Shown here in pieces: positions 5,554 to 40,447 of a stretch of DNA of 64,000 nt; within the stretch, counting starts at the first letter, position 1, and the number at the start of each line of letters is the position of its first letter. Position numbers and translations under genes: made by a program. The notes beneath the pieces are model-generated. The model had not been told where the DNA came from, ran no database searches, and worked only from the letters and a program-made list of their open reading frames with translations. Source of the stretch: Parcubacteria group bacterium GW2011_GWC1_45_13 (GTDB lineage Bacteria; Patescibacteriota; Minisyncoccia; UBA11713; 2-01-FULL-45-33); assembly GCA_001001285.1 (NCBI GenBank), contig LCKG01000004.1, positions 1,957 through 65,956 on the forward strand. Direction: 5' to 3'.

Positions 5554-6226
5554 CAGCGGCGTTTTTGCCGAATTTCGATTTTCTTACAGGCAATTTTACC
5601 GCTTTTTGAAACTCAGCCACAAAATTTTGCCTTCCGGTTACTCCCCCGCCAACTATTATTAGTTTAGGGTTGTATTCTTTAAAGCGCCATTTCAAATGTT
5701 GGACTAAAAAAATGGCGAGGGCGTAGTTATTTTTTGAATCGCGTAATTTCTGATATTCTTTTTCCCAGCTCTCTGGGTACTCAAATTTTTTAATTTTTAA
5801 AATTTTGCCGGCTCTGCTGATCGCGCGCCCTATGCCCGTCCCCAGCGTAATAAATAAAACGGCCTGCCCGTCTAAATGCGTTAGCCCTGCCTTGCCAGTA
5901 GGCAGGTTTTGGTGGGCTCTCGCGAAACACCTAGCATCGTTATCAAGCCGCAACTTAGACGTCGGACGTCTAAGTTGCGAAATATCAAAATTTTTAAGAT
6001 ATTTAATGTTGGGGCAAAATAGAATTTTATTTCCTGAAACTGCGCCGGGCACTCCGATGCCGATTTTCTTTGCGCGGTAACTTTTTAAAATATTTTCCAA
6101 AAGCTTTTTAAAAGCGGCTAAATTTTTAGGCGTTTTAAACTCGCGAGCTTTTACGGCCCGCTTGCTGTCCCACAAAACCGCGCGTATTTTTGTGCCTCCA
6201 ATGTCTATACCTAACATAATATCCAT
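5531..6226 (-). CDS. ROK family sugar kinase-like protein
   Basis: GIDIGGTK, GIGVPG, DNDA and TLGTGIG motifs; carries two palindromic inserts. Confidence 0.88.
   Translation of the reverse strand: MDIMLGIDIGGTKIRAVLWDSKRAVKAREFKTPKNLAAFKKLLENILKSYRAKKIGIGVPGAVSGNKILFCPNIKYLKNFDISQLRRPTSKLRLDNDARCFARAHQNLPTGKAGLTHLDGQAVLFITLGTGIGRAISRAGKILKIKKFEYPESWEKEYQKLRDSKNNYALAIFLVQHLKWRFKEYNPKLIIVGGGVTGRQNFVAEFQKAVKLPVRKSKFGKNAAAIGAALL
5886..5906. repeat. Family B 21-nt palindrome inside ROK gene
   Basis: CCTGCCTTGCCAGTAGGCAGG; near-identical copies at 20421, 45639, 48672 and 60171. Confidence 0.9.
5949..5979. repeat. Family A (GACGTC) palindrome inside ROK gene
   Basis: CGCAACTTAGACGTC-G-GACGTCTAAGTTGCG with perfect 15-bp arms; same core as the copies around the transposase. 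Confidence 0.9.
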
Positions 6227-28849: not shown

Positions 28850-28866
28850 TTTGGTGATTGATTACC

Positions 28867-28893
28867 CCACTTGGACGTCCGACGTCCAAGTGG
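28867..28893. repeat. Family A palindrome just downstream of transposase
   Basis: CCACTTGGACGTC-C-GACGTCCAAGTGG. Confidence 0.93.
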
Positions 28894-28896
28894 CTA

Positions 28897-29541
28897 TTAA
28901 TTTTCTAAAGATAACAGAACCTCTAGCTCTTTTAATAATTCTTTTCTTTGTAAAATATTTTTTAATGACTCTTCTCCAAATGTCTTATATTCTTTTTTGT
29001 TTTTAAATTGCTTAAGAATAATATTTTTATTACAAAGGTTTTCTTCACTTGAACTAATAAATTCTTCCCAACTAGAATAGGCGCCCCCCTCTTTTAATCT
29101 ATGTGCGCGGTTATTTAAATTTACATAAACGCTTGCATGCAATAAATATTCATTGGAATCAATATGACTAGATTTAAATTTGCCCTGAAAAAGTACGCCG
29201 CTCCTTTTATATTTATTATTAAAATACTTTGTATAGCCACCATTTAATCTTTTCATAAACTCGCTTAATCCACCGTCTGTTTTTGGCTCCAAAATCATAT
29301 GATAATGATTTGGATTAAGGCAATAGCAAATGATATTCACCAACTTGGACGTCTGACGTCCAAGTCGGGGTTTATCGAATGAATTTTCGTAAATACTGCC
29401 TATTGGTTCTAGAGAATTAAATTCCTTCATACTTTGAAGAAACCTCTTGAAATCATAATCGTTGTTAAATACAATACGCTTATCAGTGCCGCGGTTATAG
29501 ATATGATAAAATTCACCAATCATGAAAGCGGTTTTTCTCAT
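28897..29541 (-). CDS. HUH tyrosine transposase (Y1/IS200-like, REP-associated RAYT type)
   Basis: YHIYNRG, YCL.PNHYH (HUH), YFN.KY.RSG.LFQ..FKS, YV.LN and YSS motifs. Confidence 0.9.
   Translation of the reverse strand: MRKTAFMIGEFYHIYNRGTDKRIVFNNDYDFKRFLQSMKEFNSLEPIGSIYENSFDKPRLGRQTSKLVNIICYCLNPNHYHMILEPKTDGGLSEFMKRLNGGYTKYFNNKYKRSGVLFQGKFKSSHIDSNEYLLHASVYVNLNNRAHRLKEGGAYSSWEEFISSSEENLCNKNIILKQFKNKKEYKTFGEESLKNILQRKELLKELEVLLSLEN
29343..29365. repeat. Family A palindrome inside the transposase gene
   Basis: ACTTGGACGTC-T-GACGTCCAAGT, read as RLGRQTSKL. Confidence 0.92.
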
Positions 29542-29555
29542 GATACTATATTAGC

Positions 29556-29578
29556 ACTTGGACGTCCGACGTCCAAGT
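29556..29578. repeat. Family A palindrome just upstream of transposase
   Basis: ACTTGGACGTC-C-GACGTCCAAGT. Confidence 0.93.
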
Positions 29579-29595
29579 TGGGAAGTGGGTATAGA

Positions 29596-36671: not shown

Positions 36672-36959
36672 TTGGACATTATACGACAAAATCAGAACCT
36701 TTTTTGAGCAAAATCCCAACTGATTTACCCCTTCATTCACCCCTTCATCGGCTCTGCCTCGGAATGAAGGGGTAGCTCTGTTGATTTGCCTTATGTTTAC
36801 TGGACTTTCTAACCTTCGCTCTTCAAAATCCCAAACCCGACTTCACTCCGCTACGCCCCATTCCACGCTTGTGCTGTTTTCCACGAAAGTCCTCCTGTGG
36901 AGGACTGGCTCGCCGCCCAGCTGGGCGGCTCGCAGGTCGCCGGAATTCCTCCCCTCAAA
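36672..36959 (+). repeat. Left copy of ~290-bp inverted element flanking the island
   Basis: Aligns along its length with the reverse complement of 39880-40170; 36831-36879 is identical but for one indel. Confidence 0.88.
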
Positions 36960-37087
36960 CCCCTCCTTTCGGCTGGTCCTTAGATGAGGTAGATAAGCAG
37001 TTATCCACAGGTGAGTACTTTACAAGAATGTGATATTGGTATAGGATCATACTATCACTTAATAAACTATCAATTAGTATACAAAAT

Positions 37088-38740
37088 ATGGAAAAAAACC
37101 AAAAAACTGAGACCATAGATATCACACCGGATAAGAGTATTTATCACAAAATTGGGGAAGCTAATTATTCGATCTCTGATGCACTTGCAGAATTAGTAGA
37201 CAACTCAATTGATGCTGCGAATGAAGATGGCGTCGAGATATTTATTGTCTTAGATAAGAAGGGAGAAAAAATCATTGTCGAAGACAACGGGCAAGGGATG
37301 AGCAAAGAGATAGCTTCGAAGAGTCTAGTACTTGCCTATTCTAAAAAACATGATGCACTAGGCGAGTTTGGCTTGGGTTTAAAATCAGCTTGCACAAGTC
37401 TCGGAACAATTTTTGTTATAACAAGTACTCCAAAAGGCTCTGAAGAAAAATATACTCTCGAATATAATAAGGAGCAATTTTTACAATCAAGTGATTGGCA
37501 TAAGTATCCTCTTACAATCATAAAGGCTCCGAAGAATGAACACGGAACAAAAATAGAAATTAGTAGTTTGAAGATCAAATTATATGATGCACTTGTTACG
37601 CGTCTCAAGGAGGACTTAGCAAAAAGATACGGCCCATATATTGAGCATAACAATGTTGTCATTAAAGTCGGCTTGAGGAGAGAGACGGCTAAACCGTGCG
37701 TACCTAGCGAAAATAAACTAGTTCCTGACTCGAAGAAAGATTTCTCATATATGCTTTCAAAAGGAAGCACTATTACGGGTTGGTATGGTCTTTTAGAGGT
37801 TGGATCACAAAAACAAAGCGGTTTCAACCTATTCCGAAGAGGACGATTAATAAGAGCGTCTGAGAAACTTGGTTATAACTATCACCCACACCTTATGAGT
37901 GTTGCGGGGGAAATAAATTTGGATTCCGTACCAGTAACACACAATAAACGAGAATTCATTATTGAATCTAGCGAATTTAAAGAATTTATTGAAAAATTTT
38001 GGGGCGATCAAACTGAAAAATATTTGGGGTACAAAGTTAAGGGTAAAATCGATGAGATAACAAAAACCGCCAGAGATCGATCAAGCCAAGAAAAAGCGGA
38101 TAGTATGCCAGTTGAAAGAAAAGAAACAATAAAAAATAACTTATTGAATGCCCTTAACCGCCTCGATGAATTCAAAGAATTAGCTTACCCAGATCTATAT
38201 CAACCTAAAAAGAGGTCTGCAACTGGGAAGGAAGATTTTAAGGAAACCAGAGAAACTGATTTGCGAGTAGCTAAAGAAGAGGAAGTGCCGCTTACAAAGG
38301 AAGAAAGGGATCAAAGAACACCCAAAAAGACACAGCCCAAAACAGCCAAGTTTATAATGGTTGGGGGGAAAAAATTCAAATTTGATTTCTTTCTAAGAAA
38401 TCTGGGGAACGATACTATCGATAAGGAAACTATTATTAATCAAGAAAATGTTATCGAAATATATATTAACACGGGATTCAAGGGTTATGGTTTAACAAAG
38501 GATACTGATTTTTATTCTACCTTCCATATAGCGGAGGCTATTGCCGAACTTTATGTTAAAGAAGCTAATCAAAAGGTAGAAAGGATTTTTGAGCTAAGAA
38601 ATAGTCTCATATACGAAGTTGCATCTTTAATATACGAGGAAGAGGAATATAAAAGGCTTGAAAAAACTGAAAAAGAGTTGGCTGCAGTTACTGACAAAAA
38701 AAGAGAGCTTGAAGAAAAGAGAGCAAGAACGAGTTTATGA
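37088..38740 (+). CDS. GHKL (HATPase_c/MORC-like) ATPase with C-terminal coiled coil
   Basis: AELVDNSIDA, EDNGQGM, GEFGLGLK and HGTKI Bergerat boxes; S5-like region (RRGRLI, THNK). Confidence 0.9.
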   Translation: MEKNQKTETIDITPDKSIYHKIGEANYSISDALAELVDNSIDAANEDGVEIFIVLDKKGEKIIVEDNGQGMSKEIASKSLVLAYSKKHDALGEFGLGLKSACTSLGTIFVITSTPKGSEEKYTLEYNKEQFLQSSDWHKYPLTIIKAPKNEHGTKIEISSLKIKLYDALVTRLKEDLAKRYGPYIEHNNVVIKVGLRRETAKPCVPSENKLVPDSKKDFSYMLSKGSTITGWYGLLEVGSQKQSGFNLFRRGRLIRASEKLGYNYHPHLMSVAGEINLDSVPVTHNKREFIIESSEFKEFIEKFWGDQTEKYLGYKVKGKIDEITKTARDRSSQEKADSMPVERKETIKNNLLNALNRLDEFKELAYPDLYQPKKRSATGKEDFKETRETDLRVAKEEEVPLTKEERDQRTPKKTQPKTAKFIMVGGKKFKFDFFLRNLGNDTIDKETIINQENVIEIYINTGFKGYGLTKDTDFYSTFHIAEAIAELYVKEANQKVERIFELRNSLIYEVASLIYEEEEYKRLEKTEKELAAVTDKKRELEEKRARTSL

Positions 38741-38810
38741 GACCCAAAGATATAGGAAAGACAAACATAAAGGTCGATACGATAATAATAAATTATAATT
38801 TAATACCACA

Positions 38811-39233
38811 ATGAAGAAAAAAGTTTTTGTTAGCTTCGATTATGATAATGATAAGCACTACAAATATCTTCTTGAGGCATGGGACGCGAATCCTCAATTT
38901 AATTTTGTCTTCAATGACGCGACACCAGAGGAAATCGATAGCTACAATATCGGTAGAATCAAAGCGGCCTTAACCTTAAAAGTTAAGGAGGCAGACTACA
39001 CACTAGTTCTTGTAGGTAAGGAAGCGAATAAGACCCATAGACACAGTCGACTTATTGGCTTTAAAAACTGGATCAACTTTGAGGTTGCTAAGAGTAAAGA
39101 GCTTGGAAACAAAATCGTTGCCGTCAAATTAGATAGAGAGAATGAATCTCCAGAGGAGCTGCTCGACTCAGGTGCTTCTTGGGCTATGAGTTTTTCTCAA
39201 GCCGCAATTATCAAGGCATTGAATGATGCCTAA
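38811..39233 (+). CDS. TIR-domain protein (ThsB/DUF1863-like)
   Basis: KVFVSFDYDND, TLVLVG and WINFEV with the catalytic Glu. Confidence 0.9.
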   Translation: MKKKVFVSFDYDNDKHYKYLLEAWDANPQFNFVFNDATPEEIDSYNIGRIKAALTLKVKEADYTLVLVGKEANKTHRHSRLIGFKNWINFEVAKSKELGNKIVAVKLDRENESPEELLDSGASWAMSFSQAAIIKALNDA

Positions 39234-39243
39234 GTGAATATCT

Positions 39244-39849
39244 ATGAGCATAAGCGACGATAAAAAACTAGAGACGCTTAACGATCACTACAAAGATACA
39301 TTCGCTCAAATACGTGATTATATCTCACTGCGTGATAAGTTGTTGATCTGGATTCTCTTGGTAGCTGCAGTGATGTTATTCGAAGTTTTTTCTCCGAGTG
39401 AGGCCGGCTTAGCTATCGCACAATTTGCGTCCGAAAAGGTCGGCCTTAATGGAGCCTTAATTAACACCTCATTCATCGGAAGCGTCATTTGGTTTTTGAT
39501 GCTCGTTTTGACAATGAAATATTTTCAAACAGTGGGGTTAATTGAGAAACATTATGATTATATTGAAAAAGTAGAGGACGCTATAAGAAAAAACTACGAT
39601 GGAGCTACGGGAATCTTTTCTAGAGAGGGACGACACTATCTCGAAAACTATCCTCTCTTTTCTGATTGGTCGTGGCTCTTATATACGATAATTTTCCCGA
39701 TACTATTAGTCGCCGTTTTGTTATATAAAATATATAATGAGGTTTTTATTTCAGGTTGCAGCGTGATTTTCTATATAAATCTTTTAATATTTATTTGCAT
39801 AGTTACGTCAACGATTCTTTATTTAAGGATGTTGCATTTTAAAAAATAG
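39244..39849 (+). CDS. Four-TM membrane protein, putative effector
   Basis: Four hydrophobic segments; starts 10 nt after the TIR gene. Confidence 0.8.
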   Translation: MSISDDKKLETLNDHYKDTFAQIRDYISLRDKLLIWILLVAAVMLFEVFSPSEAGLAIAQFASEKVGLNGALINTSFIGSVIWFLMLVLTMKYFQTVGLIEKHYDYIEKVEDAIRKNYDGATGIFSREGRHYLENYPLFSDWSWLLYTIIFPILLVAVLLYKIYNEVFISGCSVIFYINLLIFICIVTSTILYLRMLHFKK

Positions 39850-39879
39850 TTCTCGGCCATGCGACCTTGAGCTATGAAT

Positions 39880-40170
39880 TTTGAGGGGAGGAATTTCGGC
39901 GACCAAGCGAGCCGACCAGCAGGGCGGCGAGCCAATCCGCCGGAGGCGGATATTGTGGGAAACAGCACAAGCGTGGAATGGGGGCGTAGCGGAGTGAAGT
40001 CGGGTTTGGAATTTGAGGGAGGCGAAGTCAGAATAGCGAGTAATGACAGGCGGATTTGAGAACGGAGGGTAGTCATTCCGAGGTAGGGCGAATGACTACC
40101 TGAATGACTAGGTAAATCAGTCAGGATTTTGCTCAAAATGAGTCCGAACAGTATCATAAAGACACCACCA
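39880..40170 (-). repeat. Right copy of ~290-bp inverted element
   Basis: Reverse complement matches 36672-36959. Confidence 0.88.
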
Positions 40171-40189
40171 AATTTGATTTGCATCAGAA

Positions 40190-40227
40190 TTGACCGAGCC
40201 CGCGCCAAAGGCGCGGGCGAGGTCAAT
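40190..40227. other. Strong hairpin just 3' of tRNA-Ala
   Basis: TTGACC..GCCCGCGCC-AAA-GGCGCGGGC..GGTCAA; terminator-like or repeat. Confidence 0.55.
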
Positions 40228-40248
40228 CTTTCTTCAAATTCGGAATTG

Positions 40249-40319
40249 TGGACCCGAGGGGAATCGAACCCCTATTTTCCGGATGCAAACCGGATGCTCT
40301 ACCACTAAGCTACGGGCCC
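40249..40319 (-). tRNA. tRNA-Ala(TGC)
   Basis: Acceptor GGGCCCG/CGGGTCC with G3:U70; anticodon arm TCCGG-TTTGCAT-CCGGA. Confidence 0.95.
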
Positions 40320-40329
40320 CGGGCACGAT

Positions 40330-40447
40330 TTATTTCTTGCCCATGATCCTTTCCTTTCATTGTCACCTCTTTGGGATTCACCATCGTTCTTTTTTCACGG
40401 CATTTTACACAGTAGGCAATTATTTTTTCGTCTTTATCATTTGCCAT
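40330..40447 (-). pseudogene. Internally deleted small zinc-ribbon (DUF5679-like) gene
   Basis: MANDKDEKIIAYCVKCREKRTMVNPKEVTMKGK, then RIMGKK-stop in another frame; the second CxxC is missing. Confidence 0.6.

Follow-up and report, generated by a model that had tools for sequence, protein, structure and literature searches.

A recombinase-less tRNA-Ala island in a Parcubacteria genome with probable, differently keyed relaxase-binding units at its two ends

We analysed a 64,000-nucleotide stretch of the genome of the ultra-small Parcubacteria group bacterium GW2011_GWC1_45_13 (assembly GCA_001001285.1, contig LCKG01000004.1, positions 1,957 to 65,956; hereafter the window, to which all coordinates refer) that contains a small genomic island beside a tRNA-Ala gene. 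The island derives from a tRNA-targeting integrative element of the large serine recombinase (LSR) type and lacks an LSR of its own. Our favoured reading, which we consider probable, is that this recombinase-less island at the tRNA-Ala 3′ end is delimited by a left attachment site (attL) and a second, inverted element attachment site (attP), each with the likely relaxase-binding part of a MOB_C origin of transfer (oriT). The unit concerned is read as part of an oriT because it lies upstream of a relaxase gene in relatives and because its repeat type correlates with one residue of that relaxase. The relaxase-less island likely carries two such specificities, and its ends are likely two differently keyed transfer origins, usable by either enzyme type.

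The island spans positions 36673-40253, with the 5-bp core TGGAC at both ends (36673-36677, the attL core on the forward strand, and 40249-40253). The boundaries were placed at these cores because the empty sites of two same-genus genomes (G233 and G354, 2/2) lack everything between them: there a MerR-type helix-turn-helix (HTH) gene directly adjoins tRNA-Ala on the reverse strand, and relative to this arrangement the island adds 3,576 bases. The target, tRNA-Ala(TGC) (40249-40319, reverse strand), was identified by a tRNA match and is kept intact, with the right element just 3′ of it. The empty-site joint 36672->40249, with five shared letters, was found in contigs of five of the eight sequencing runs, at depths that mostly indicate other strains. 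Since the MerR gene also occurs at the empty site and in 16 of 19 family genomes, it belongs to the host, and binding of a MerR/IS607 or excisionase type by this HTH protein was therefore ruled out. The host genome (756 kb in 28 contigs, 95% complete) holds five LSR homologues, two VirD4-like genes and one VirB4-like P-loop gene.

An earlier note on this DNA had described two inward-facing homologous elements of about 290 bp, and these are real: 36673-36959 on the forward strand and 40167-39880 on the reverse strand share 219 matching bases over 287/288, and BLASTN within the 756-kb genome paired them at 77% over 266 columns (E 1e-47). The limits it gave, 36672 and 40170, hold for the homology but not for the island, whose true ends are the TGGAC cores. 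Its triple repeats were found again, on the left at 36727, 36739 and, inverted, 36762, and on the right as TAGTCATTC twice plus GAATGACTACC, as were the downstream hairpins and the coding tails at both ends. Compared with the LSR genes of relatives, these tails are indeed C-termini of Patescibacteria LSRs.

The left element is attL and the right element is the second, inverted attP of an LSR element, a layout also seen in intact relatives. From left to right, the P′ arm of attL (36673-36723, forward) reads as the LSR C-terminal tail W...RTFFEQNPN-stop and is identical at 52/58 positions to the tail of the intact element L160 (loci of relatives are given as L numbers). It is followed by a 127-bp unit of the CCCTTC repeat type (36724-36850, forward; conserved core 36837-36850), the predicted relaxase-binding part of oriT, and by a GC-rich hairpin region (36851-36975, forward), in which the common inverted repeat stops at 36959 in a C-run and then takes the 'X' form typical of the attL copy. 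The right element, on the reverse strand, comprises a hairpin region (39852-39989) that includes 'Y', a terminator-like palindrome (about 39852-39871) characteristic of the internal copy, a 127-bp unit of the TAGTC repeat type (39990-40116; 80/127 identical to the left unit), and the second attP (40117-40197), in which the tail WWCLY...QNPD-stop (40170-40117) is preceded by a short LSR 3′-end (P) arm of another lineage; 21/21 positions are identical to the internal attP junction of L117. A palindrome common to both P arms (40198-40218), also present in the LSR 3′ end of L156, likely marks the point where an LSR-bearing segment is missing. Beyond it, the P arm and core of the right attachment site (attR; 40219-40253, forward) consist of the last codons of the lost LSR running into the tRNA reverse strand (41/42 identical to the LSR 3′ end in L156, 24/26 to L160).

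A third copy lies in the same genome (G000:C6:43740-44110, equal to L031:7741-8110), 1 kb after tRNA-Arg(CCG). It consists of an LSR 3′ remnant, half a unit of the TAGTC type (48 nt), a complete CCCTTC unit and the Y end, with both repeat types in tandem, and then come toxin-antitoxin-like, GIY-YIG-like and IS110-like open reading frames (ORFs; labels by eye).

To place the island among its relatives, we combined a DNA search of class genomes (29 of 401 matched, many weakly), a pattern scan of 185,579 genomes that gave 104 stretches, of which 80 loci (duplicates included) hold the unit by hidden Markov model (HMM), and a stricter pattern in metagenomes that gave 43; L053 and other chance pattern matches were left out of the unit set. 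The loci belong to Patescibacteria almost throughout. Intact elements begin with the tRNA (attR, into which the LSR gene runs), an XRE gene, a first cargo (B) and the internal block of LSR 3′-end copy, tail, unit, hairpins and Y; a second cargo (A) follows, and X, hairpins, unit and tail form attL. Their LSR has Resolvase, Recombinase and zinc-ribbon domains, and the gene trio of LSR, Replic_Relax relaxase and VirD4-like protein occurs among them, with no genes of a type IV secretion system (T4SS) seen within the elements. In 19 loci picked from self-BLAST, the internal attP carries an LSR 3′-end copy of 102-167 bp; since this copy precedes the tail, the internal block is a complete inverted attP. 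The duplicated attP copies are usually near-identical and sometimes of different lineage. Simple single-copy elements also exist (L073, L117).

In 15 of 18 elements the tail holds a counterpart of the T-loop motif GAAC of the tRNA (B′ arm), placed 4-5 bp further outward, with 4 bp the usual value (12/18; L156 was left out), a shift that fits a serine-integrase attP compared with its host attachment site (attB). A test of arm symmetry across the attP core gave no signal. The empty sites and the varied cargo of relatives support the idea that the ends delimit a mobile island whose cargo varies. Inversion of the cargo, which the earlier note had also raised, was seen in relatives: 2 of 12 intact elements have X and Y exchanged, and L164 has its LSR segment flipped. 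In the run contigs one opposite-strand joint was found; at a depth of 20, compared with about 6 for the window strain, it probably belongs to another organism. The island encodes no invertase.

Several related loci showed further variants. Sister LSR islands (L033:4992-8994, L034, L035, L042-L044, L048-L050) have the same tail and a different downstream region without the 128-bp unit, and that of L033 has the same inverted spare attP. In L060, L061, L108, L125, L163 and L173 a conserved hairpin, GCACGGG-TGG-GTGGGGCAA, lies just upstream of the internal P arm and marks the outer edge of the duplicated block. Whole LSR genes with their native tail directly before the unit (L108:12784-14574, L156:6692-8164, L070) fit tandem accretion at one tRNA.

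Only 35 bp of the LSR gene, from its 3′ end, remain in the window. Between tRNA and right tail lie 90 bp, centred on the palindrome 40198-40218, and their two halves match different lineages, the LSR 3′ end of L156 and the attP junction of L117. Based on these matched halves, the LSR segment was likely lost from between P arms that belong to two lineages. A partial alternative is that the element is intact and that the gap is an assembly shortcut through 27 bp of identity at the palindrome; the reading of the ends as attachment and transfer sites would then stand, and only the term 'recombinase-less' would fall. On each side of the palindrome, contigs of public runs do run on into LSR-like sequence, and at 40347/40348, inside a small ORF, the window lacks 62 bases that run X1 and a same-genus relative have, probably an assembly error. 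However, the loose contig ends match a related element seen in L156, similar collapses at the palindrome occur in L032 and L188, and no matching LSR arm exists elsewhere in the host genome contigs. We therefore regard an assembly shortcut as rather unlikely, though as a serious candidate.

The triple repeats form the first ~50 nt of a unit of fixed length, 127 nt in 70 of 82 distinct copies and 128 nt in 10, although the pattern allowed a range of 30 nt; the unit ends were fixed by the search pattern, which makes their conservation partly circular. Tandem stacks, in which differing types occur together, have a period of 128 bp; the 145 contexts included 30 second units. Among 74 copies less than 90% identical (mean 60%), covariation was strongest between the three repeats and took the form of direct identity as well as of complementarity. 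By repeat type these copies comprised 28 CTTC, 27 TAGT, 6 CTAC, 5 CATC, 5 mixed and 3 other. The middle of the unit (positions 53-113) is unstructured (fold z about 0), and A/T content peaks at a period of 10.5 bp. Covariation in homologues, confined to the triple repeats, and a link to recombinase genes and variable cargo, both of which the earlier note had proposed to look for, were found.

In 13 pairs a Replic_Relax gene (MOB_C, PF13814; 287 aa, E about 1e-26) starts 172-211 bp downstream of the unit. It follows directly in 15 of the 96 copies with 400 nt of flank; its PDAFF...EADRG motifs are intact, and VirD4-like genes lie further downstream in several elements. In these first 13 pairs one residue tracked the repeat type: arginine (R) with TAGTC, glutamine (Q) with CATC, asparagine (N) with CTAC and glutamate (E) with CTTC. 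Eight further pairs fitted, four with R, two with N, one with Q and one with a new residue, glycine (G), and CTTC. The normalized mutual information of the key column was 0.97, compared with 0.71 for the next column (n = 20) and 0.85 for the best of 300 shuffles (n = 21). The residue predicted the repeat type in 19 of 19 leave-one-out cases, two singletons being without prediction, compared with 13 of 21 by nearest relative. In a tree built with the helix masked, a CTTC relaxase fell inside a starred TAGTC clade and a TAGTC relaxase inside a starred CTAC/CATC clade. The key residue tracks the repeat type better than overall kinship does. L233, L234 and L241, where unit or helix runs off the contig, were left out of the residue test, as were relaxases of <=37% identity, which had no unit by HMM. 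Among 120 homologues the key position shows the same few residue states, and there are also A and T classes; homologues of the relaxase number about 2,270 in all. The repeats therefore behave as the binding sites of variable specificity that the earlier note had envisaged, and the protein that tracks them is the relaxase, beyond the recombinase and accessory proteins considered there.

The key residue is number 55, in the third helix (50-62) of a predicted MarR-like winged helix (predicted local distance difference test score, 86.5); a first fold from 10 sequences had left the N-terminus unresolved. In winged-helix folds the third helix reads the major groove. The model matched a MarR-DNA complex with Z 9.6 and a root-mean-square deviation of 2.7 Å over 76 residues. 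Foldseek gave nothing at E <= 0.001, TraX was absent among the fold matches, and a sequence search of solved structures returned one MarR (E 0.15). More distant Patescibacteria relaxases (L218 and L226, ~30% identical) have CCGACTT inverted repeats 100-250 bp upstream, short repeats of their own and a different origin-like region.

Several observations weigh against our favoured reading. The 21 pairs are few and related (four are Doudnabacteria-like near kin, and L215 and L129 are 93% alike), two degenerate R-class units (L235, L236) were typed after the residue was seen, the type of the left unit is represented by 2 pairs only, and in 5 units the first repeat is of another type than the second and third. 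The relaxase is missing directly downstream of 81 of 96 units; it had no match in 38 of 50 unit-bearing genomes (found in 12) and was found in 0 of 40 metagenome loci of the window's subfamily. It is rare altogether (3 of 401 class genomes, 9 of 401 phylum genomes), and no PF13814 relaxase was found in the window or matched in the 95%-complete host genome, the family control of one of these searches giving no signal. No circle joint was found in the contigs of the eight runs, contigs being all that was covered. The reverse strand of the CCGACTT core shares only 5-6 bases (GTCGG) with the CloDF13 nic quoted in the available text of PMC5935869, and the usual distance of a MOB_C oriT from its relaxase is about 2 kb according to the portion consulted of bioRxiv 2024.01.30.577996. 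Finally, the reading offers no account of how the inverted duplication arose.

If the unit is the relaxase-binding part of oriT, the winged helix of the relaxase would bind the three repeats, two direct and one inverted, with its third helix reading the central bases, and the phased A/T tracts may bend the DNA. Two nearby sites are candidates for the nick: the G/C run that sharply terminates the duplicated block, as it does in each of the 12 elements listed, and the conserved CCGACTT core. An LSR acting in trans, for which the host has five homologues, would excise a circle that bears two attP-oriT blocks in inverted orientation. From there the circle would reach a coupling protein and the host T4SS with the help of a visiting relaxase, of the E/G class for the left unit or the R class for the right unit, and the inverted blocks would let segments between them flip.

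The same unit could instead be the iteron-like replication origin of an excised circle, with the Replic_Relax protein as initiator and not as transfer enzyme. An identical binding code would be predicted for such an initiator, a constant length and phased A/T tracts are in keeping with an origin, and the inverted repeats recall the flip amplification of 2-micron type. MOB_C proteins are, moreover, described as multifunctional (PMC5714925, in part). Nevertheless, several elements have VirD4-like coupling genes after the relaxase, and all unit copies seen lie in chromosomal or contig context; two scans of viral contigs gave 0 matches for the unit core pattern and 0 confirmed for the relaxase. 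We consider a replication origin improbable.

We consider it very improbable that the serine recombinase, or a directionality factor, uses the unit as an accessory site, with cargo inversion (phase variation) as the purpose of the pair. In about 101 of 111 non-tandem copies the unit comes immediately after an att tail (by a loose pattern, with no chance control), an XRE-HTH gene is often nearby, and the flipped cargo and LSR segments of relatives described above would be accounted for. Yet the repeat type follows the relaxase helix, the adjacent MerR gene belongs to the host, and simple elements with a single copy exist. That the ends encode a conserved structured RNA with two alternative pairings, as the earlier note had proposed, is scarcely credible: double changes preserve a stem between repeats 2 and 3, and positions 1-52 fold with z about -4.9, but the two strands have equal z-scores, there is no preference for G-T over A-C (22 vs 37; 4 vs 40; about six rows out of register), the covariation is confined to the repeats and as strong in direct-repeat as in complementary columns, the middle of the unit has its A/T period in place of structure, and in Rfam only tRNAs reached the gathering score. 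Equal folding of both strands, G-T at or below A-C and A/T phasing instead fit a double-stranded DNA site.

Between the ends lie three forward-strand genes with a G+C content of 36.6%, compared with 41-47% in the flanks. They encode a GHKL/MORC-like ATPase of 550 aa (37088-38740; HATPase_c_3 E 1.6e-20, weak Morc6_S5), a ThsB-like TIR protein of 140 aa (38811-39233; PF08937 E 3e-11, PADLOC ThsB1 E 3e-15), and a membrane protein of an unnamed family of 201 aa (39244-39849; unnamed Atlas clusters, score 0.96), a possible effector given a weak match to a PADLOC 2TM effector (E 0.008). No complete PADLOC system matched the trio (37088-39849), which is possibly a defence module. Upstream of the first cargo gene, after the end of the left element, lies a DnaA-box-like motif, TTATCCACA (37001-37009). 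Outside the island, at 28861-29582, palindromic CACTTGGACGTCCGACGTCCAAGT repeats flank an ORF of 214 aa (28897-29541), which we take to resemble a transposase of the Y1 type associated with repetitive extragenic palindromes; more copies of the repeat occur at 5945 and 11969.

Comparison with known systems is based on the consulted parts of the papers cited here. PF13814 has been described as MobC, paired with a serine integrase and VirD4 in streptococcal integrative mobilizable elements (IME_Class_8; PMC5357655), the same combination as in our intact relatives. The Patescibacteria elements differ in their tRNA 3′-end target, in an LSR C-terminus supplied by the att site and in the second inverted attP-oriT block, and the window island has neither LSR nor relaxase. 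In this respect it resembles iOriT hitchhiker islands and the multi-oriT plasmids mobilized by pWBG749, which are likewise relaxase-less and have their origin or origins used in trans (PMC11389934; bioRxiv 10.64898/2026.01.13.699239). Single amino-acid changes are reported there to shift oriT range; in contrast, the Patescibacteria units present a repeat code of four classes, seen in natural pairs and predicted to lie in the winged helix of the relaxase itself, and stack at a 128-bp period. Serine-recombinase islands make up <1% in the latter study, whose consulted part does not mention Patescibacteria. The relaxases of pAD1 (TraX) and CloDF13 (MobC) are likewise of the PD-(D/E)XK type (PMC5714925), and CloDF13 nic has the short GTCGG likeness; compared with these MOB_C oriTs, the predicted Patescibacteria origin lies directly upstream of the relaxase. 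The large serine integrase of LI/A118 likewise uses attB, attL and attR with a short core, and its attP motif lies about 5 bp outward compared with attB (PMC3783163). Here the shift is mostly 4 bp, and an extra, unrecombined attP lies inside the integrated element. Neither the unit nor the inverted attP nor the residue code turned up in the literature covered, which left subscription papers and supplements outside its scope; the relaxase table of bioRxiv 10.1101/2025.01.22.634366 could bear on this novelty. In its consulted part, that study reports widespread chromosomal T4SS in Patescibacteria and 109 relaxases, 58 of them MOB_C, suggests a role other than conjugation and makes no mention of oriT.

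Taken together, these data may, tentatively, point to a modular conjugative mobilome in Patescibacteria, in which 128-bp oriT cassettes would be stacked on tRNA-integrating LSR islands and read by a one-residue code (R, Q, N and E/G for TAGTC, CATC, CTAC and CTTC). With attP and oriT duplicated as inverted blocks, several relaxases might export a single circle through the widespread relaxase-less T4SS of the hosts, several recombinases might integrate it, and its segments might flip to give isomers. A defined origin for MOB_C relaxases on many relaxase-less defence islands would make DNA export through the Patescibacteria T4SS directly testable. Recognition by MOB_C relaxases is poorly understood, and a natural one-residue specificity switch would offer a ready binding experiment and possibly orthogonal pairs of oriT and relaxase. 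The LSRs of Patescibacteria, in addition, come with readable attB/attP pairs at tRNA genes.

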